A stretch of DNA of 36,718 bases. Source: Patescibacteria group bacterium. Lineage in GTDB: Bacteria; Patescibacteriota; Minisyncoccia; Phycocordibacterales; UBA9973. Made by a program: the position numbers and the translations under genes. The stretch covers positions 1 through 36,718 of the forward strand of contig JBBTUE010000004.1 of NCBI GenBank assembly GCA_038063915.1, given 5' to 3'. Below the pieces are notes generated by a model. The model was given only the letters and a program-made list of their open reading frames with translations. It searched no databases and was not told the DNA's origin. Shown here piece by piece: positions 6,825 to 15,745 of this stretch (position 1 is the first letter of the stretch; each line of letters opens with the position of its first letter).

Positions 6825-7190
6825 ATGCCAACAAAAGAATTAAAAACTAAAAAGAAATCAGTAAAGAAAGTAAAAGAAGATGTAGTTGTCCAATTACGCA
6901 TTCGTGTGAGAGCTTATGAGAATAAGATCCTAGACGCGTCCGTAAAACAAATCATAGACACTGCTCTTCGCTATGACGCTAAAATTGTCGGGCCAATTCC
7001 ACTTCCAACTGAAATTAAGAAATATACAGTTAACCGAGCATCGTTTGTGTTTAAAAATGCTCGAGAACAATTCGAAATCAGAATTCACAAGCGTGTTATC
7101 GATATCTTAAATCCTAATGCGAAGACTATCGAAGCGCTTACGAATCTATCTCTTCCATCCGGAGTTGATATAGATGTGAAGATGATGTAA
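6825..7190 (+). CDS. rpsJ: 30S ribosomal protein S10 with Lys-rich N-terminal extension
   Basis: LRIRVRAYE, GPIPLPT, REQFEIRIHKRVIDI, LPSGVDI. Confidence 0.98.
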   Translation: MPTKELKTKKKSVKKVKEDVVVQLRIRVRAYENKILDASVKQIIDTALRYDAKIVGPIPLPTEIKKYTVNRASFVFKNAREQFEIRIHKRVIDILNPNAKTIEALTNLSLPSGVDIDVKMM

Positions 7191-7202
7191 TAATCAAAAT
7201 TT

Positions 7203-7841
7203 ATGAAATTTATCCTTGGTAAAAAACAGCATATGATGCAGTGCTTTGATGATGATGGGAAAGTCATCCCTGCGACAGTAGTAGAGGCGGGTCCACTCGT
7301 AGTTACTCAAGTCAAAAATCCAGACACAGATGGCTATACTGCTATTCAGGTGGCCTTTTTAGAGCAAAAGAAAAGCCGTGCTACAAAAGCGCACCTTGGC
7401 CATGTCCTACCTGCACAAGCAAGTAAGGATGGGGGAGTTGTAGAGGCAGGAGCGTTCAAGCATCTGCGCGAATTTCGAGATATCGAAGAAATATCTGTAG
7501 GTGATCGGATTACTGTCGACTCTTTTTCAAAAGGTGATATAGTCACAGTTTCAGGACTTTCAAAAGGTAAAGGATTCCAAGGAGTTGTCAAACGTCATGG
7601 TTTCCACGGAGGTCCTCGCTCTCACGGTCAAAAACACTCAGAACGCGAACCAGGTTCGATAGGTGGAGGACTTCGCAATAAAGTTCCAAAAGGCATGCGC
7701 ATGGCTGGCCGTACAGGAGGCGACCGCATTACTGTTCGGAATTTGGAAATTATTGGCATAGATAAAGAGAATAATCAGTTACTCGTAAAAGGAGCTATTC
7801 CAGGACGACGTGGAACTCTTGTGGAAATTATTGGACTATAA
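7203..7841 (+). CDS. rplC: 50S ribosomal protein L3
   Basis: ILGKK..M, DGYTAIQV, SKGKGFQGVVKRHGF, PGSIG, KGMRMAGR. Confidence 0.98.
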   Translation: MKFILGKKQHMMQCFDDDGKVIPATVVEAGPLVVTQVKNPDTDGYTAIQVAFLEQKKSRATKAHLGHVLPAQASKDGGVVEAGAFKHLREFRDIEEISVGDRITVDSFSKGDIVTVSGLSKGKGFQGVVKRHGFHGGPRSHGQKHSEREPGSIGGGLRNKVPKGMRMAGRTGGDRITVRNLEIIGIDKENNQLLVKGAIPGRRGTLVEIIGL

Positions 7842-8529: not shown

Positions 8530-8850
8530 ATGGCAACAACTAAAACAAAATCAAAAAAAGATGAAAAGAAAGTGGAAGAGACACACCCACTTATTTTAGG
8601 TGCACGTATAACTGAGAAGTCATCAAAAGGTGCCGACCAAGGTATCTATACTTTTAATGTCAGAGAAGATGCTAATAAAAGTGAAATAAAAAAGGCCATC
8701 AAGAAATTATATAAAGTAGAACCTACCAAGATTTCCATAACTAAAATTACCCCAAAGACTGTAGTTAGACGTGGTATTATCGGCACAAAGCAAGGTGGAA
8801 AGAAAGCCGTCGTTTTCTTGAAGAAGGGAGATAAAATAGCATTTGTATAA
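8530..8850 (+). CDS. rplW: 50S ribosomal protein L23
   Basis: ITEKS, ANKSEIKKAI, KKAVVFLKKG; position after rplD. Confidence 0.96.
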   Translation: MATTKTKSKKDEKKVEETHPLILGARITEKSSKGADQGIYTFNVREDANKSEIKKAIKKLYKVEPTKISITKITPKTVVRRGIIGTKQGGKKAVVFLKKGDKIAFV

Positions 8851-8851
8851 T

Positions 8852-9700
8852 ATGAAAACTTATAAACCTACAACTCCATCAAAGCGACACCAGACTACTG
8901 TTTCCTACAGAAATGTTTTAACTACAAGTACTCCCCAGAAATCTCTGACTCGAGGATTCAAGAGGTCTGTCGGGCGCAATAATCAGGGCCGCATTACTAC
9001 TCGCCACAAAGGTGGTGGGCACAAGCGACTATATCGCGAGATAGATTTTATGTACAACAAGCGCGATATCCCTGCTACTATTTCGTCTATCGAATACGAT
9101 CCAAATCGTAATGCATTCATCGGGCTTGCAGTTTATGCCGATGGCGAAAAGCGCTACGCGATAATTCCAAAATCTGTAAAAGTTGGAGATAAATTTATAG
9201 TCGGCGAGAAAGTTCCACTAACTACTGCGAATCGCCTACCACTTAAACTTATACCAGTCGGAACCTTTGTTTACAATGTTGAAATCAAGCCCGGTAACGG
9301 CGCGAAGCTTGCCAGATCCGCAGGAGTATTTGCTCAAGTAGTTGCAAACGACAGCGGGTATACAAATATTAAAATGCCATCAACAGAAGTACGTAAAGTC
9401 TCGGAGAACTGCTACGCATGTATTGGTGAAGTTTCAAACTCAGAATACAAACTTCAGAATTTCGGTAAAGCTGGACGCTCACGTTGGAAAGGTATCCGCC
9501 CAACAGTGAGAGGTACAGCCATGAACCCAGTTGATCATCCACACGGAGGTGGTGAAGGCAGACAAGGACGAGGACTCCGTAGAGCGAAAACTATGTGGGG
9601 CAAACCATCAGGAAAGGGTCAGAAGACCCGTACTCCAAAGAAGTACTCAAACATGTGGATAGTTTCCCGCCGACGCGTAGGAAAAGCAAAGAAAGCGTAA
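8852..9700 (+). CDS. rplB: 50S ribosomal protein L2
   Basis: GRNNQGRITTRHKGGGHKRLYREIDF, IEYDPNR, RGTAMNPVDHPHGGGEG; ATG at 8852. Confidence 0.99.
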   Translation: MKTYKPTTPSKRHQTTVSYRNVLTTSTPQKSLTRGFKRSVGRNNQGRITTRHKGGGHKRLYREIDFMYNKRDIPATISSIEYDPNRNAFIGLAVYADGEKRYAIIPKSVKVGDKFIVGEKVPLTTANRLPLKLIPVGTFVYNVEIKPGNGAKLARSAGVFAQVVANDSGYTNIKMPSTEVRKVSENCYACIGEVSNSEYKLQNFGKAGRSRWKGIRPTVRGTAMNPVDHPHGGGEGRQGRGLRRAKTMWGKPSGKGQKTRTPKKYSNMWIVSRRRVGKAKKA

Positions 9701-9708
9701 AATACTCA

Positions 9709-9740
9709 AACAAAAAATACCCATATGGGTATTTTTTGTT
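9709..9740 (+). terminator. Terminator after rplB (32-bp perfect palindrome)
   Basis: AACAAAAAATACCCAT|ATGGGTATTTTTTGTT. Confidence 0.85.
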
Positions 9741-9777
9741 GGTACAAAATTAGATAAGTAGTATAATAAATTAATAC

Positions 9778-10431
9778 ATGGCTAATCAACAGCTCACAGA
9801 GTATATAGAAACAGTCCAAGCACAAGGTTTTTCTGAGCCTATGATACGAGATGTCTTGGCAAAGAATGGCTGGCAAACTCAAGATGTGAATGATGCCTTC
9901 TCTTACCTAAAACTTGAGAAAGATACGTTAGTTTCCTCTGCGCCTGTTGCTCCTAATATGGCTGGAGCTATCCCTAATGATTCTCTGAGAAAAGAGCAAA
10001 ATATATCTAATATTTTTGATAAGCCTGCGGAAAATAAAGCGTTTGAATATAATTCGCCTTTTAGTGTTGGACTCGCTATTGTTCTTTTTGGTGCACTCCT
10101 TATTCTTATAAATAAGATTATTGATGATAGTGGCTCATTTACTTCTAGCATAAACGGTAAATTAGTTTTCGATGCACTTTTGATATTACCGTTTCTACTG
10201 ATGGCGTTTATTTTGCATGGTTCATTTCATAGTCAAGAGAAGAAAAATTTCCTAATTCTATCGCAACCATATTTTCTAGTCTCAGCCCTCCTACTTGTAA
10301 GATTACTCTGGGATACCAGTAGATATATCTTGGATAAAAACGCGACCTATGGAGTATATATAGTCCTCGCACTTATTATCATAGTACTAACAGGGGTCAT
10401 TATTTTTATCCAGAAATATATAAAAAATTAA
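9778..10431 (+). CDS. Membrane protein: small N-terminal helical domain plus 4-TM domain
   Basis: N-terminal QLTEYI...GFSEPMIRDVLAKNGW..QDVNDAF helical motif; four hydrophobic segments; TATAAT 10 nt upstream. Confidence 0.8.
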   Translation: MANQQLTEYIETVQAQGFSEPMIRDVLAKNGWQTQDVNDAFSYLKLEKDTLVSSAPVAPNMAGAIPNDSLRKEQNISNIFDKPAENKAFEYNSPFSVGLAIVLFGALLILINKIIDDSGSFTSSINGKLVFDALLILPFLLMAFILHGSFHSQEKKNFLILSQPYFLVSALLLVRLLWDTSRYILDKNATYGVYIVLALIIIVLTGVIIFIQKYIKN

Positions 10432-10435
10432 TCAT

Positions 10436-10885
10436 ATGTCCTCATTAGTCAAAGAACAAAATAGTAACGTATTTAAAACAAAGTTCACCACAGCCGGAGG
10501 GTTTATCGTCACCCTCCTTGGACTCGCTATTCTCGCACTCATGGAGCGTGTACTCTATGATGCTGGACGATTGATGGTGTCGCCACCACTAGACTACCTA
10601 GATAATGGTGGAGTAATAGTTGTCCACGGAGTTATCATAATATTGTTTCTTGTCATTGCACTTGTGACCAACGTTTCTATCTCTAGTAGTAAAGAGCGCT
10701 ATGCGATCGCTCTCGTGCCGTATTATGTAGTCAGTATAATTTTGGCATGTCAGCTCCTATTCCAGATTAGTGTCTACTTCTACAATCATCATACGACATT
10801 TCAATTCTATGTAGTAATGATTGCATTAATAGCAGTCTGTACTTATGGTATTTACCATATACAAAAGCGACGCATAATAGCGTAG
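10436..10885 (+). CDS. 4-TM membrane protein, apparent paralog of the TM domain of 9778-10431
   Basis: Shared D.G, PY(F/Y).VS, LL(W/F)..S.Y, Y(I/V)V and IQK motifs in the same register. Confidence 0.8.
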   Translation: MSSLVKEQNSNVFKTKFTTAGGFIVTLLGLAILALMERVLYDAGRLMVSPPLDYLDNGGVIVVHGVIIILFLVIALVTNVSISSSKERYAIALVPYYVVSIILACQLLFQISVYFYNHHTTFQFYVVMIALIAVCTYGIYHIQKRRIIA

Positions 10886-10893
10886 ATAAAAAT

Positions 10894-11229
10894 ATGGAAC
10901 CAACGCTTACAACTCCTCCTCCTGTGCCACTTCCACCAATCGGTGCTTCTACGGTAAAGGATTTTCGTAAGTCAAAGTTTATACTTGTGCTCGCATACAT
11001 TCAACTCGGATTATTTGTATTTTCTCTGATTAGCAATATGGCTAGAGTTCACTTGCCGTTCTTAAGTATCTCTCCTTCAATTATCTTTTTAATACCTTCT
11101 CTACTTGTCGTCTTTACCAAAAGCAAAGGTGTCTACAAAGTCGCAAGGATCCTATTGATCATCGAGTACCTCCTTATTCCACTTTTTATAATCGGATTCC
11201 TATTTTTACTCTCTAGTATGCATTGGTAA
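10894..11229 (+). CDS. Small 3-TM membrane protein with Pro-rich N-terminus
   Basis: Hydrophobic segments; operon-like spacing. Confidence 0.7.
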   Translation: MEPTLTTPPPVPLPPIGASTVKDFRKSKFILVLAYIQLGLFVFSLISNMARVHLPFLSISPSIIFLIPSLLVVFTKSKGVYKVARILLIIEYLLIPLFIIGFLFLLSSMHW

Positions 11230-11231
11230 TT

Positions 11232-11627
11232 ATGGAAAATAATTTATCTGAAAAAAGACGTTTCTCCATAGTATCTAGATTAAAGAGCACTAATCATGCA
11301 TTTAGAGGTGTGCTTATTTTTATAAAAAGTACTCACAATGCTTGGGTCCATATATTTTTCTCAGTTCTTGTAGTATACCTAGGTTTTACTTTAAATATAT
11401 CTTCCATTGAATGGGTTTTGATTATATTTGCGATTGGACTTGTAATACTAGCCGAGACAATTAATACTGCGATTGAAATAGATATAGATCTAACCAGTCC
11501 GACCTATCATCCATATGCTCGCGACACCAAAGATGTTGCCGCTGGAGCGGTCCTAATTACTGTGCTTATTGCTGGAATCACTGGGCTGATAATTTTCTTA
11601 CCAAAAATAATCTTGCTTATAAAGTAA
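11232..11627 (+). CDS. dgkA: Diacylglycerol/undecaprenol kinase family protein
   Basis: AFRG, ETINTAIE...D, KDVAAGAVL motifs; three TM helices. Confidence 0.9.
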   Translation: MENNLSEKRRFSIVSRLKSTNHAFRGVLIFIKSTHNAWVHIFFSVLVVYLGFTLNISSIEWVLIIFAIGLVILAETINTAIEIDIDLTSPTYHPYARDTKDVAAGAVLITVLIAGITGLIIFLPKIILLIK

Positions 11628-11658
11628 AAAACTTCTGGATTCCTCCAGAAGTTTTTTT
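11626..11658. terminator. Bidirectional terminator between convergent dgkA and pyrE
   Basis: AAAAAACTTCTGGA-TTCC-TCCAGAAGTTTTTT. Confidence 0.85.
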
Positions 11659-11689
11659 ATTCCATTTATTTCTACTAGCTATGCCAGTA

Positions 11690-12688
11690 TTATCCCTTCA
11701 CTGAAGGGAAGCCATTCTCATCTCCCCAGTTCGGCTGGTTGTCGTACCAGTCCCATAATTTTTTCTCGTCATCAAATGGCAAGTTTCCTGAGTGACGAAA
11801 TTCAGCGATGATCTGCTTGAAGTTCAACACTGATCTTAAATACAACCCTTTTGCTGTAAAGCTATTCTTTGAACTTTTCAGTTCGTAATCAAAAATCGAA
11901 ACAGGTATAATTGCTGTTCCATAACCAATCAATGCTAAGAACTCTTTCAGGCTGGATTCGCCAGTGCTAACGAGGTCTTCAAGTCCCACAATTGTCTTAC
12001 CACCAATGTCTTTCTCTGTTAGCCGTTTGATAAAATTATCAATAAATAGCGTCCAGGATTTTGGATTCAAGTCCAGACCTGCTTCCATCAAGGCCTTCTC
12101 AGCCTCTTCAGTATATGGAGACATCCCAGCATATGCAGGATCTATAAGGACTACTGTCTTTCCTATCTCCACAATACCCTCAATTTGCAATCCAAGGCCA
12201 TGATCTTTCTTTTCCTTTCGCACAAATAGGAAAGGTTTTTCTGCTTCTTCAGCCATCATCAAGCCGCAGACAATACCCATTGGAACTGTGCCGGCAAATA
12301 CATCGGTATCTTGCATAAGACGGGTGATACTCCCTTTTATAAAAGCTTTTAAATTGGGAATGTCCACCAGATAGTACTCATCTTTTATCTTAAGAAGAAG
12401 AGGTTTATTTATCTCCATGGCAAGTAATACTGCTGGAGCGATACCAGCCGTCGGGATACCATAGACCCAATCAATAATAAAAAGCTCGTCTTTTTTTATC
12501 AATGAAGCCAATGCCTTCCGTAGGCTTTTTCTTGCCTCTACACTTGATTGCAAGGCTCGGTTATTTACGTAAGGTGGGTTCCGAGTTCCACTTGCCCAAA
12601 GCTTGGGTTTGAGGAAGTTGTATCCAAAGGCGCCAAGGCTGATTAAAAATTTAGCAATTATACTTGCGAAGGTCGATGTCTTTTGCAT
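11690..12688 (-). CDS. pyrE: Orotate phosphoribosyltransferase-like protein with an internal duplicated PRT core (332 aa)
   Basis: Hood WASG..NPPYVNNR, GIPTAGI, VRKEKKDHG..QIEG loop, EDLVSTG PRPP loop; next to pyrC/pyrD. ATG at 12688 is preferred because the TTG at 12751 is the -35 element. Confidence 0.85.
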   Translation of the reverse strand: MQKTSTFASIIAKFLISLGAFGYNFLKPKLWASGTRNPPYVNNRALQSSVEARKSLRKALASLIKKDELFIIDWVYGIPTAGIAPAVLLAMEINKPLLLKIKDEYYLVDIPNLKAFIKGSITRLMQDTDVFAGTVPMGIVCGLMMAEEAEKPFLFVRKEKKDHGLGLQIEGIVEIGKTVVLIDPAYAGMSPYTEEAEKALMEAGLDLNPKSWTLFIDNFIKRLTEKDIGGKTIVGLEDLVSTGESSLKEFLALIGYGTAIIPVSIFDYELKSSKNSFTAKGLYLRSVLNFKQIIAEFRHSGNLPFDDEKKLWDWYDNQPNWGDENGFPSVKG

Positions 12689-12723
12689 AGTAGTTGATTT
12701 AAATGAATTGAGAATTTTTCTTA

Positions 12724-12751
12724 ATCCTACCTTACTCACATTTTTTGTCAA
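12724..12751 (-). promoter_or_regulatory. Promoter for pyrE
   Basis: TTGACA-16 nt-TAGGAT. Confidence 0.7.
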
Positions 12752-12753
12752 AT

Positions 12754-12782
12754 AAAAATCCTGCTCGTTTCCAAGCAGGATT
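12754..12782 (-). terminator. Terminator after pyrC
   Basis: AATCCTGCT/AGCAGGATT stem with a T tract on the minus strand. Confidence 0.75.
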
Positions 12783-12804
12783 AATATAATAATATAGGAA
12801 CAAT

Positions 12805-14151
12805 TTAGCGGTTAAACTCCAGTCTCTTTCCCATTTTGTATTCATTAAAATGACCGTTGTCGTAAGCCAGGTGCCCATTCACAAATGTATGGGTTATTAC
12901 TGAATGAAACCTTTTTCCTTCAAAAGGACTCCAGCTACATTTTGAGAGAATATTTTCTTTACCGACAGTGTAGTGCTTATCCATATCTACTAGCACTAAG
13001 TCAGCAAAGTATCCCTCCTTAATGAAACCCCGACGGTCAATATCGAACATGATTGCAGGATTGTTGCACATTTTCTCCACAATCTTTTGCTTACTAATCT
13101 TGCCGGCAATGGCAAACTCAAGCATCAAATTGAGAGAATGTTGTACCAAAGGTATTCCTGACGGAGCTTTGGTGTACAATTGGGATTTTTCATCCCATGT
13201 ATGCGGTGCATGGTCTGTGGCAATAACGTCGATAAGGTCATCAAGTACGGCGTTAAAAATTGCTTCCCTGTCCTGTTCGGTTTTGATGGCCGGGTTACAC
13301 TTTATCAGATTACCTAACGTCTCGTAGTCCTTATCAGAGAAATACAAATGATGTACGCATGCTTCGGCTGTGATCTTCTTTTCCATCAATGGAATATCGT
13401 TACGGAAAAGCTTCAACTCGTTTGCGGTGCTTATATGAAGGACATGCAACCTTGTCCCATATTTTTTAGCAAGCTGGACGGCAAAAGCAGAGGAACTATA
13501 GCAAACACCATGATCTCTTATAATTGGATGAAATACTGCTGTCAGGTAATTTTCACCATACTTAGCAATGGTTTTTCCCAAGTTCATTTTCATAAGGACT
13601 TCATCCTCACAATGTGTTGCAATTAACATCTTTATATTCGCAAAGATTTTTTCCAAACACTCCGGACTATCTACCAGCATATTACCAGTGCTACTTCCCA
13701 TGAAAATTTTTACTCCGCAAACTTTCTTAGGGTCAACTTTCAACAACTCGTCAAAGTTATCGTTAGTTGTGCCCATGTAGAATGAGTAGTTTGCAAGTGA
13801 TCGCCCCCTAGCGATATTATACTTGTCTTCGAGCAACTGAATTGTTGTAGCTGGAGGGGAAGTATTAGGCATTTCCATATAACTGGTCACACCACCAGCA
13901 ACTGCTGCTTTAGCTTCAGTATAAATTTCAGCTTTGTGGGTGAGACCCGGCTCACGAAAGTGTACCTGATCATCAATAAGTCCAGGGAATAAATATTTTC
14001 CTGTTCCATCGATAATCACTGCGCCGGAAGAGTTTACAGAATTTGGCTTCCCGATCTGACTTATGAGCTCATCTACGATAAGTACATCGGCCTTGCGTCC
14101 AGGTATATGACCAAAGACAACATGAACGTTCTGGATAAGTATTTTCTTCAT
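12805..14151 (-). CDS. pyrC: Dihydroorotase (long amidohydrolase type)
   Basis: PGLIDDQVHFREPG, GGVTSYMEMPNT, KIFMGSSTG, HCEDE, HVLHIST, KCNPAIK, IATDHAPH. Confidence 0.95.
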   Translation of the reverse strand: MKKILIQNVHVVFGHIPGRKADVLIVDELISQIGKPNSVNSSGAVIIDGTGKYLFPGLIDDQVHFREPGLTHKAEIYTEAKAAVAGGVTSYMEMPNTSPPATTIQLLEDKYNIARGRSLANYSFYMGTTNDNFDELLKVDPKKVCGVKIFMGSSTGNMLVDSPECLEKIFANIKMLIATHCEDEVLMKMNLGKTIAKYGENYLTAVFHPIIRDHGVCYSSSAFAVQLAKKYGTRLHVLHISTANELKLFRNDIPLMEKKITAEACVHHLYFSDKDYETLGNLIKCNPAIKTEQDREAIFNAVLDDLIDVIATDHAPHTWDEKSQLYTKAPSGIPLVQHSLNLMLEFAIAGKISKQKIVEKMCNNPAIMFDIDRRGFIKEGYFADLVLVDMDKHYTVGKENILSKCSWSPFEGKRFHSVITHTFVNGHLAYDNGHFNEYKMGKRLEFNR

Positions 14152-14184
14152 AACTAGAGTTTTATTGTTTTTTGAATTTTCTTC

Positions 14185-14213
14185 ATCCTATGCCTTTTGC
14201 ATCCAAAATGCAA
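14185..14213 (-). promoter_or_regulatory. Promoter for pyrC
   Basis: TTGCAT-17 nt-TAGGAT. Confidence 0.65.
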
Positions 14214-14214
14214 G

Positions 14215-14251
14215 AAAAAATCCCGGGGTGCAATACTGCATCTCGGGATTT
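14215..14251 (-). terminator. Terminator after pyrD
   Basis: AAATCCCGGGGTGCA-ATAC-TGCATCTCGGGATTT imperfect inverted repeat with a T tract on the minus strand. Confidence 0.7.
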
Positions 14252-14268
14252 ATAAATAGGGTCTAATA

Positions 14269-15252
14269 TTAACTTGTCATCAAGGATTTGTAGCATTCTT
14301 TTATAATACCTTTTACTGCCCAAGGTTTTATAAATGCAACAGTCCCGATAGATATTGCCTTAACATTCGGAAAACCACAAAGGACTCTTACATTGTCCTT
14401 TGACATTACTCCACCACCAGCAATTATCGGTTTAGTGTGAGTATTCAGCATACTGAATCTCGTAAGCCACTTTTCAACTACAGGGAAAATTGGTGCACCG
14501 GATAATCCACCGCTCGTATATCCTCTAAATACAAGTGGTGACTTGTCATGTATGGAATATTTACTCCACTTTATTTCTTTTGGGAACTCCCCGTAGGGAA
14601 TACTGTTTGAGAAGCAAAGGGCATCACAGTATTTGTGCTCCATTATTTCATGCGCAATTTGAGGTAGAAGCACTGCATTTATCTTTGGCACTAAGGGTAT
14701 TTCAAGCTCACCCAAAATGTCGAGGATTTGAGATGCTTCTCCGGTTAACTCCTTCTGACTATGCCCAGTATTAGGACAAGAAATATTTACCTGCAAGGCA
14801 AACTTTGCCATAAACTTTGGTAAATGTTTTTTCAAAAGACTTACGAATTCACGGGTCTCAGCGATACGTTCGTCCCTCGTTTTTCTTATCGGCATGAACG
14901 AAAGCATGAAAGGCTGAGTCCTTTGTTGCCAGATACCTCTTAACAGTAAACTTTTAAACCCTGGATTACTCAGCCCTACTGCATTTAAAGCAGCACCTTT
15001 TAGGGGCATGGGATATATAGCATCAGGTAGAAATTTTTTAAAGGCAAAACCTCCAAGGTCGAGCCTCACATTTCCTTTATTGAAGTCAACTGTCGCTGTC
15101 TTTGCGACGAAATCCATATTTTTAAATATATCACCCCAGATCATTTTAATAATTCTACTGTGCTTATATTCGGGATAAGAAGGGTTTCCATAAAACCCTT
15201 GTACCCCAGACGCACCAAGCGCCGGACCGAAATAGATATTTCTTAATATCAT
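14269..15252 (-). CDS. pyrD: Dihydroorotate dehydrogenase, class 1-like (Cys base)
   Basis: ASG, KTAT...GN, LNAVGLSNPG, VNISCPNT, GGLSGAPI, IIAGGGV, IGT motifs. Confidence 0.9.
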   Translation of the reverse strand: MILRNIYFGPALGASGVQGFYGNPSYPEYKHSRIIKMIWGDIFKNMDFVAKTATVDFNKGNVRLDLGGFAFKKFLPDAIYPMPLKGAALNAVGLSNPGFKSLLLRGIWQQRTQPFMLSFMPIRKTRDERIAETREFVSLLKKHLPKFMAKFALQVNISCPNTGHSQKELTGEASQILDILGELEIPLVPKINAVLLPQIAHEIMEHKYCDALCFSNSIPYGEFPKEIKWSKYSIHDKSPLVFRGYTSGGLSGAPIFPVVEKWLTRFSMLNTHTKPIIAGGGVMSKDNVRVLCGFPNVKAISIGTVAFIKPWAVKGIIKECYKSLMTS

Positions 15253-15294
15253 GGTTGAGATTTTTATTTAGAAAATAGCGTTATATTTTCATTT

Positions 15295-15322
15295 ATCCTA
15301 CAGTATTTATCCGCAATGTCAA
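15295..15322 (-). promoter_or_regulatory. Promoter for pyrD with a DnaA-box-like 9-mer in the spacer
   Basis: TTGACA-16 nt-TAGGAT; TTATCCGCA at 15307-15315. Confidence 0.7.
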
Positions 15323-15339
15323 TGAGTATCTATGTGTAT

Positions 15340-15367
15340 TTGACTTTATTCCTAGATTTGTTAGTAT
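15340..15367 (+). promoter_or_regulatory. Promoter re-initiating the r-protein cluster at rpsS
   Basis: TTGACT-16 nt-TAGTAT with TGn; same TAGTATGGA as the tuf promoter. Confidence 0.75.
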
Positions 15368-15403
15368 GGACGGACGAGCTCACAGGAGCTTATTTATATT
15401 GAT

Positions 15404-15745
15404 ATGACACGATCACTCAAAAAAGGCCCATATGTAGACGAAAGGCTCTTGAAGAAGATTGCCGGAAAAAAGCCTATTGAGACAGGAATGATAAAGACCT
15501 GGTCTCGAGCATGCGTTATTTCACCCGAGATGGTGGGGTTTATGTTTGGAGTTCATAATGGCAAGCAACATGTAGAGGTCCTGGTGAGTGAAGATATGGT
15601 AGGGCATCGCTTAGGCGAATTCTCTCCCACCCGCAAGTTCGTCAAGCACGGAGGTAAAATGCAGAAAGAATTAGAAGAGAAGAAGAAAGAAGCCGAGATC
15701 TCCGCAGCAAAATCAGCCAAATCCGCGACCGAAACAAAGAAATAA
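15404..15745 (+). CDS. rpsS: 30S ribosomal protein S19 with C-terminal extension
   Basis: [33 protein letters not shown]. Confidence 0.98.

Follow-up and report, generated by a model that had tools for sequence, protein, structure and literature searches.

How does a gene for orotate phosphoribosyltransferase (OPRTase, PyrE) come to encode 332 residues, when canonical PyrE has 200 to 250? This question is raised by a gene, here called long pyrE, on the minus strand (11690..12688) of a stretch of 36,718 nucleotides that we refer to as the window, namely positions 1 to 36,718 of contig JBBTUE010000004.1 from the Patescibacteria group bacterium assembly GCA_038063915.1. We found that the gene encodes a full-length PyrE interrupted by a second PyrE core that lacks the N-terminal hood. 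A preliminary description of this DNA had read the product as one phosphoribosyltransferase (PRT) core nested inside another, and all the motif strings that it quoted are present in the 332-residue translation. We keep its motif labels, which run in the order hood, B1, B2, C2 and C1, B1 and C1 belonging to the outer copy and B2 and C2 to the inner one. Long pyrE comprises 332 codons plus a stop codon, the protein being the translation of window positions 11693-12688 on the minus strand. The open reading frame (ORF) on this strand spans 11690-12751, with an ATG at 12688 and an alternative TTG start at 12751. We took the ATG as the start because the homologues begin at that methionine; those of 320 to 337 residues align with the protein end to end. 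The reading frame is intact.

The outer PyrE is encoded in two pieces, both on the minus strand, as is the inner core between them. The N-terminal piece (residues 1-108; 12365..12688) contains the hood, the first core strand, the pyrophosphate (PPi) loop, a helix and the beta2'-beta3' hairpin (the strands of this piece are 74-77, 97-101 and 104-108), and the hairpin stops where the flexible catalytic loop, or lid, would be expected. The lid-loop position of the outer copy is occupied by the inner hoodless core (residues 109-229; 12002..12364). The C-terminal piece (residues 230-332; 11693..12001) then provides the strand of the phosphoribosyl pyrophosphate (PRPP) loop, the rest of the core and the C-terminal helices. 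Spliced together, the two outer pieces amount to 211 residues, which is the normal length of PyrE.

To place this protein in a family, we relied on homologue searches. A first search returned 16 proteins of 273 to 337 residues with 34 to 49% identity, and when 1.84 billion representatives were searched with a profile, 5097 matched at E <=0.001. Canonical PyrE of 200 to 250 residues matched the family profile in three stretches. In contrast, 65 of the best 150 representatives, each from a different 50%-identity cluster, matched it in one stretch that covers 290 or more of the 326 profile positions, and they share the nested architecture that the preliminary description had seen in one gene. All motif counts given below refer to 70 long-form members with 22 to 49% identity to the query; these are single-stretch matches of roughly 290 to 350 residues, fragments and fusions being left out.

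The duplication itself was visible in the comparison with solved structures. Three collinear stretches of long PyrE matched solved PyrE chains, and their target ranges contained duplications. For 2aee, query residues 6-65 matched target residues 4-63, 125-182 matched 66-123, and 230-321 matched 117-209. For 3m3h, the first stretch (9-87 on 27-104) continued through B1, and query residues 128-182 matched target residues 89-143. Since two segments of the query match one segment of PyrE, B1 and B2 both correspond to the same part of PyrE. Aligning the protein with itself gave a score of 38 for B1 against B2, compared to 24.2 +/- 4.7 for shuffled sequences (z of about 2.9; 9 of 500 shuffles scored at least as high). 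Because single-sequence self-alignment was too weak to prove a duplication, profiles were needed. With profiles built from the 70 members, the inner part (109-229) matched the spliced outer part with a probability of 94.4% (E 9.4e-8, 84 columns), and the lid loop appeared in this alignment as an 11-residue insertion found in the inner copy only. Furthermore, against a profile of 13 canonical PyrE sequences, the spliced outer part matched over all 211 residues (E 1.3e-75) and the inner part over 100 columns, at canonical positions 56-156 (E 5.4e-30). These matches indicate that both parts derive from PyrE. Together with the duplicated ranges in 2aee and 3m3h, the profile matches of the separate segments bear out a nested rather than a tandem duplication. 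The preliminary description was thus right to place the inner copy inside the outer one, but the limits that it gave (12071-12310, residues 127-206) were too narrow, the inner copy covering residues 109-229 (12002-12364). It starts at the helix equivalent to PyrE alpha-2, the inner model aligning to residues 43-186 of 3m3h_A. A second hood was not found: the inner copy aligns to canonical positions 56-156 only, so the protein is not made of two complete units.

We then turned to predicted structures. An AlphaFold2 model of the full protein, based on 15 sequences, had a predicted local distance difference test score (pLDDT) of 93.9 and a predicted template modeling score (pTM) of 0.92; the ESM Atlas's own model of long PyrE had a pTM of 0.87. 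In the VIA comparison, whole PyrE (2aee_B) superposed on the model range 5-323 with a Z of 20.8 and a root mean square deviation (rmsd) of 2.3, 200 of the 203 residues of the chain being aligned, and the predicted model displays a type I PRT fold with an N-terminal hood. Folded alone from 70 rows, residues 109-229 gave a pLDDT of 95.4 and a pTM of 0.87, with the same helices and strands as in the full model except for strand 220-223. This strand probably pairs with outer strand 104-108 in the full-length model, forming the stalk of the former lid hairpin. In a structural search of the whole PDB, the best match of the inner model was the OPRTase 2yzk_A (Z 12.4, 116 of 121 residues aligned, rmsd 5.8), and nearly all of the first 40 matches were PRT-fold proteins by title, with OPRTases on top. 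The preliminary description would have been undermined by an inner segment without a PRT fold; the segment is predicted to adopt this fold by itself.

A different topology, in which B2 and C1 form the catalytic core and B1 and C2 a side domain, was also considered and rejected on the aligned ranges, the identities and the autonomous folding of residues 109-229. Hoodless alpha/beta folds (1j5x_A and 4c6t_A) aligned from residue 69/70 to 288/294 with 87 to 106 aligned residues, which is about equal to the 104 outer residues within 70-294. With this number of aligned residues, B1 cannot be in a different domain from C1. In agreement with this, the VIA identities (29% to 2aee_B, 27% to 4rv4_A and 3dez_B) fit a B1-based alignment, for which an approximate hand count gave about 58 of 200, and do not fit a B2-based one (about 71 of 200, likewise approximate). 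Finally, canonical PyrE genes of other Patescibacteria fell on the family profile at positions 5-96, then 127/143-180 and then 223-322. These three indirect read-outs agree, and all point to a canonical core built from B1 and C1 in the predicted model and to an insert, residues 109-229, that forms a domain of its own.

The catalytic motifs were found to be divided between the two cores. On the outer copy, the hood motif W31-R44 (WASGTRNPPYVNNR; 12557..12598, minus strand) matches the orotate- and PRPP-binding hood of Gram-positive-type PyrE, with W31, P38 and R44 each conserved in 65 of the 70 members and Y40 in 67. The outer PPi loop G77-A86 (GIPTAGIAPA; 12431..12460, minus strand) follows the family consensus GT.TAGIAPA, as in canonical PyrE. 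G82 is present in 68/70 and I83 in 64/70 members, and the core of the loop, T80-A81-G82-I83, is of the TAGI type, with TAGI in 28 members, KAGI in 12 and SAGI in 4 (44/70). Similarly, the outer PRPP-binding loop I233-S245 (IVGLEDLVSTGES; 11954..11992, minus strand) carries the acidic pair E237-D238, which corresponds to D124-D125 of Escherichia coli, followed by S241-T242-G243. The acidic pair is conserved in 68/70 members, S241 in 65, T242 in 60, G243 in 58 and S245 in 69. Between strand beta-2' and the insert, the outer copy has a stub with a median length of 13 residues, in which no lysine or histidine is conserved across the 70 members.

The inner core, whose segment measures 103 to 127 residues among the members, shows the complementary pattern. 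It carries the only catalytic lid loop, R157-G171 (RKEKKDHGLGLQIEG; 12176..12220, minus strand). Residues R157-K158-E-K-K161-D-H163 reproduce exactly the spacing of E. coli R99-K100-K103-H105, but it is the inserted domain that bears them. R157, K161, H163 and G164 are jointly present in 66/70 members, on the inner core only. The other two motifs of this core are degenerate. Its PPi-like loop, F131-G142 (FAGTVPMGIVCG; 12263..12298, minus strand), has a P136 conserved in 67/70 members, and its commonest four-residue forms are xPFG, not TAGI. Its PRPP-like strand and loop, T178-Y192 (TVVLIDPAYAGMSPY; 12113..12157, minus strand), lacks both the acidic pair and the S-T-G residues; an acidic pair at positions 182-183 was seen in 0/70 members (ID in 22, VD in 11, IN in 7, others in the rest). 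The division that the preliminary description had noted in a single gene, with hood and PRPP loop on the outer copy and lid with a degenerate PRPP motif on the inner one, therefore holds across 70 diverged members and extends to the PPi motif, which is kept outside and degenerate inside. Judged by the positions of the motifs, the pocket belongs to one PRT core and the only lid to another, as in a dimer, yet both cores are part of one chain.

What this arrangement may mean is suggested by the ordinary enzyme. In a study on E. coli OPRT (bioRxiv 10.1101/2025.01.14.632917), both sites are described as shared between the subunits, the pocket lying on one subunit and the loop covering it coming from the other; mutations of R99, K100, K103 and H105, of which K103 is essential, disable the loop, and mutations of D124 and D125 disable the pocket. 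Because the lid of an ordinary PyrE dimer acts in trans, we judged it likeliest that the inner core stands in for the partner subunit. The outer PyrE (1-108 plus 230-332) would then supply the substrate pocket, made up of hood, PPi loop and PRPP loop, its own lid loop having been replaced at the tip of the beta-hairpin stalk by the second PyrE core. This inner core (109-229) has lost the hood and both phosphate-binding motifs but retains the lid with its catalytic Arg, Lys, Lys and His. Catalytically dead, it would take the place of the partner subunit, its lid closing the outer pocket of its own chain, and one chain would make orotidine 5'-monophosphate (OMP) from orotate and PRPP at a single site. 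By analogy with the dimer, we infer that the inner domain is placed like the partner subunit and that the lid is delivered in cis. We thus favor, as the probable though by no means certain explanation, that long PyrE is a domain-inserted OPRTase whose inner core acts as partner and brings its lid to the pocket of its own chain, making it a single-chain pseudo-dimer with one site.

A second group of proteins bears on this question. Among the representative matches, proteins of 420 to 475 residues hit the family profile in four to six stretches. Three of them that we scanned had two Pribosyltran stretches each, and their sequences consist of two complete PyrE units. We cut 15 such tandem fusions (P0059, P0060, P0064, P0065, P0073, P0077, P0084, P0088, P0093, P0095, P0108, P0112, P0122, P0124 and P0129) in the middle and aligned both parts of each with 13 canonical PyrE sequences, leaving out longer entries with an OMP decarboxylase domain (P0072 and P0078) and entries with three stretches. 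The lid motif R...K.HG was intact in 13/15 N-terminal halves but in only 1/15 C-terminal halves, whereas the PRPP acidic pair was present in 2/15 N-terminal and 15/15 C-terminal halves; in canonical PyrE, both were found in 13/13 sequences. Like the long form, the tandem fusions thus have two PyrE-derived cores per chain, one with the lid and the other with the acidic pair. Unlike the long form, they are arranged head to tail with a hood on both halves, and the lid donor is a full-length N-terminal PyrE. These tandem PyrE-PyrE fusions are seen in metagenomes, and we found no paper on them in a literature search whose coverage left out most subscription journals. That complementary decay is common to both topologies supports, by analogy, the idea that one pocket and one lid per chain would be workable.

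It is possible that the lid acts in trans between two long chains. One could imagine a protein with the same nested architecture that pairs or forms larger assemblies, in which each pocket is covered by the inner lid of another chain and the inner core serves only as a rigid pedestal. All characterized OPRTases are dimers with lids in trans, and in the predicted model the outer copy keeps a complete PyrE fold and may keep the interface helices as well. However, the insert leaves the stalk of the lid loop at what is the dimer interface of PyrE, where by analogy it would be expected to fill at least part of the partner's place, and the one-sided motif loss of the tandem fusions shows that a chain with one pocket and one lid is viable. 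We therefore consider such assemblies unlikely, though the most serious competitor of the single-chain pseudo-dimer.

We next considered the genomic context. Directly upstream of long pyrE lies pyrC (12805..14151, minus strand), whose product, a dihydroorotase, scored 675.9 bits with NF006688 against a cut-off of 535. The first gene of this minus-strand cluster is a divergent pyrD-like gene with a dihydroorotate dehydrogenase fold (14269..15252, minus strand; PF01180, 49.9 bits, cut-off 27). On its other side, long pyrE stands tail to tail with a diacylglycerol kinase (DAGK) gene, at a distance of only 62 bp. The genes rplB (8843-9700) and rpsS (15404-15745), which are normally adjacent, are split here by a 5.7-kb block (9701-15403) that contains three small ORFs without Pfam match, the DAGK gene and the minus-strand cluster of pyrD-like gene, pyrC and long pyrE. 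The first of the three small ORFs (9778-10431) was examined as a hidden pyrF and rejected, as it encodes a predicted membrane protein without family match.

In the relatives, long pyrE was found beside the gene for the next step. The long form occurs in five GTDB species genomes (L015 to L019, labelled Paceibacterota, Parcubacteria or Saccharibacteria). In four of them (L015, L016, L017 and L019), an OMP decarboxylase gene adjoins long pyrE, and L018 is cut inside the gene. In L015, the slot between rplB and rpsS holds DAGK, pyrF and long pyrE. Moreover, two proteins consist of the long form fused to OMP decarboxylase in opposite orders (P0043, 612 residues, and P0114, 632 residues). A further protein, P0186 (587 residues), carries PF00215 and covers 89% of the query. 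The long-pyrE cluster of L016 also contains, just past pyrF, a second and short gene for a PyrE-like PRT (7064-7747, plus strand; 228 residues), which scored 80.3 bits with NF001729 against a cut-off of 245. In the genome of the window, long pyrE is the only PyrE-like gene found. Overall, structure prediction and comparison show a nested architecture, two predicted PRT folds, complementary motifs throughout the family and a link to pyrF, pyrC and pyrD. Judging from its gene context, long PyrE would convert orotate and PRPP to OMP and PPi.

Several observations weigh against an OPRTase built in this way. Taken by itself, the alignment of C2 against C1 was not significant (186 of 500 shuffles reached its score), and the structural evidence for long PyrE consists of predicted models. 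The curated models fell short as well. Long PyrE scored 16.2 bits with PF00156 of Pfam (cut-off 26.3), 75.4 with NF001729 of NCBIfam in three stretches (cut-off 245) and 68.8 with TIGR00336 (cut-off 106.8). The insertion splits the matches to these models, and their threshold scores were missed. Furthermore, the pyrD-like protein is very divergent, reaching at best 51.1 bits with an NCBIfam model (cut-off 269) and matching Pfam DHO_dh from residue 86 onward only. Finally, the pathway around long PyrE is incomplete as assembled. In its own genome (647,918 bases in 6 contigs, 96% complete), no OMP decarboxylase came up with any of three queries, namely Pfam, the protein of one relative and a profile built from four relatives. 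Aspartate carbamoyltransferase (pyrB) was not found either, nor was PRPP synthase, the only trace of the latter being a 32-bit match to a PRPP loop elsewhere. With pyrF and PRPP synthase not found, the product would have no visible next enzyme and one substrate no visible source. One other PRT-domain frame was detected in this genome, outside the window (G000:C4:66517-66657, minus strand, in an open frame of 227 residues), and its match to PF00156 and to the PRPP synthase model is confined to the PRPP loop.

We also asked whether the protein is still an OPRTase in this organism or has taken on another base, a regulatory role with a ligand in the degenerate inner site, or the status of a leftover of a decaying pathway. 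That pyrF, pyrB and PRPP synthase were not found in a 96%-complete genome and that the thresholds were missed would fit such a change, as would inner residues outside the lid that are conserved without obvious catalytic reason (P136 in 67/70, I139 in 59/70, G142 in 57/70 and Y192 in 50/70 members). However, the frame is intact and the hood, the PPi loop, the lid and the PRPP loop are all kept. OPRTases are nearest in the structural and profile comparisons, ahead of other PRTs. In addition, pyrF is adjacent or fused in relatives, and a true dihydroorotase is encoded next door. A loss of OPRTase function thus appears improbable, and more so than a lid shared between chains.

The distribution of the long form was finally examined. 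A second search, by word index, yielded mostly canonical PyrE and few new long forms, and no large cluster of long-form length appeared among the ESM Atlas neighbors. Of 301 genomes sampled from the phylum, this one alone was found to have the long form; the tally includes an unpublished genome (G154), which adds only a canonical PyrE match. No PyrE was found in the 16 other sampled genomes of the same class, which gave one weak generic match to a PRPP loop. One long-form member, P0045 (352 residues), is listed under an archaeon, Candidatus Woesearchaeota, as a hypothetical protein; either the gene was transferred between ultra-small bacteria and ultra-small archaea, or the sequence was binned wrongly. 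Contigs of runs X1, X2 and X3 span both domain junctions without differences, joints or loose ends; X1 and X2 are possibly the source sample. Run X5, from another study, contains identical pieces of the gene, but none of its contigs reaches across the junctions. Nothing was found in favor of a mis-joined pyrE duplicate or of an assembly chimera, the latter named by the preliminary description as a possible refutation, beyond the metagenomic origin of the genome and the weak single-sequence self-similarity. Such an artifact is ruled out for all practical purposes by the architecture shared among 65 of the best 150 representatives, the five GTDB species genomes and the contigs running across both junctions.

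We rate long PyrE as a new architectural variant of a known enzyme. In a literature search that left most subscription journals outside its coverage, nothing relevant turned up on nested, duplicated or tandem OPRTases or on pyrE in bacteria of the candidate phyla radiation (CPR). No curated family of Pfam or NCBIfam covers the long form, which three NCBI records list as "hypothetical protein". Given such names and the sub-threshold scores, pyrE may be scored absent in metabolic reconstructions, a risk that concerns the ultra-small CPR, and perhaps DPANN, genomes that carry the long form. Insertion of a second core into the catalytic loop of the same enzyme, with complementary decay of the two copies afterwards, would represent a rare and clean route from an obligate homodimer with shared sites to one chain, and the tandem family would be an independent second route for comparison. 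We tentatively hypothesize, with a confidence that stops somewhat short of calling it probable, that the PyrE dimer has been made into one asymmetric chain at least twice, once in tandem and once nested, that in the nested form a dead core, placed like the partner subunit at the tip of the lid stalk, closes the pocket in cis to give a one-site OPRTase, and that its conserved but degenerate inner pocket may be a regulatory ligand site. If true, a natural OPRTase with a single site would allow direct tests of the cross-talk between the two sites of the dimer.

How does long PyrE compare with known systems? With UMP synthase and PyrF-PyrE fusions, it shares the fusion to OMP decarboxylase, seen in both orders in P0043 and P0114. 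Unlike these, the long pyrE of the window is unfused, and its genome yielded no pyrF. Among known single chains with two PRT folds, PRPP synthetase comes nearest, its two type I folds being related to each other by two-fold pseudosymmetry (PMC6332680). There, however, they follow one another in tandem, and another reaction is catalyzed. A PRPP-synthetase-like arrangement was considered for long PyrE and rejected: only one domain of the model aligns (119 to 122 residues, Z 12.5 to 12.9), an alignment that does not tell how the two domains of long PyrE pack, and the arrangement is nested, not tandem. Pribosyltran_N has no match in the genome, and TIGR01251 does not match long pyrE. The closest likeness is to canonical PyrE itself (EC 2.4.2.10; 2AEE of Streptococcus pyogenes, 3M3H of Bacillus anthracis and 1ORO of E. 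coli), with which the long form shares the hood, the PPi and PRPP loops, the lid residues and the C-terminal helices. The whole fold superposes, and the gene lies among genes of the pyrimidine pathway. The long form differs in that its lid is carried not by the pocket domain but by a hoodless inserted PyrE core of about 120 residues. Canonical PyrE requires a homodimer to pair pocket and lid, unlike the single chain proposed here, and one chain of long PyrE may thus do the job that normally needs two subunits.

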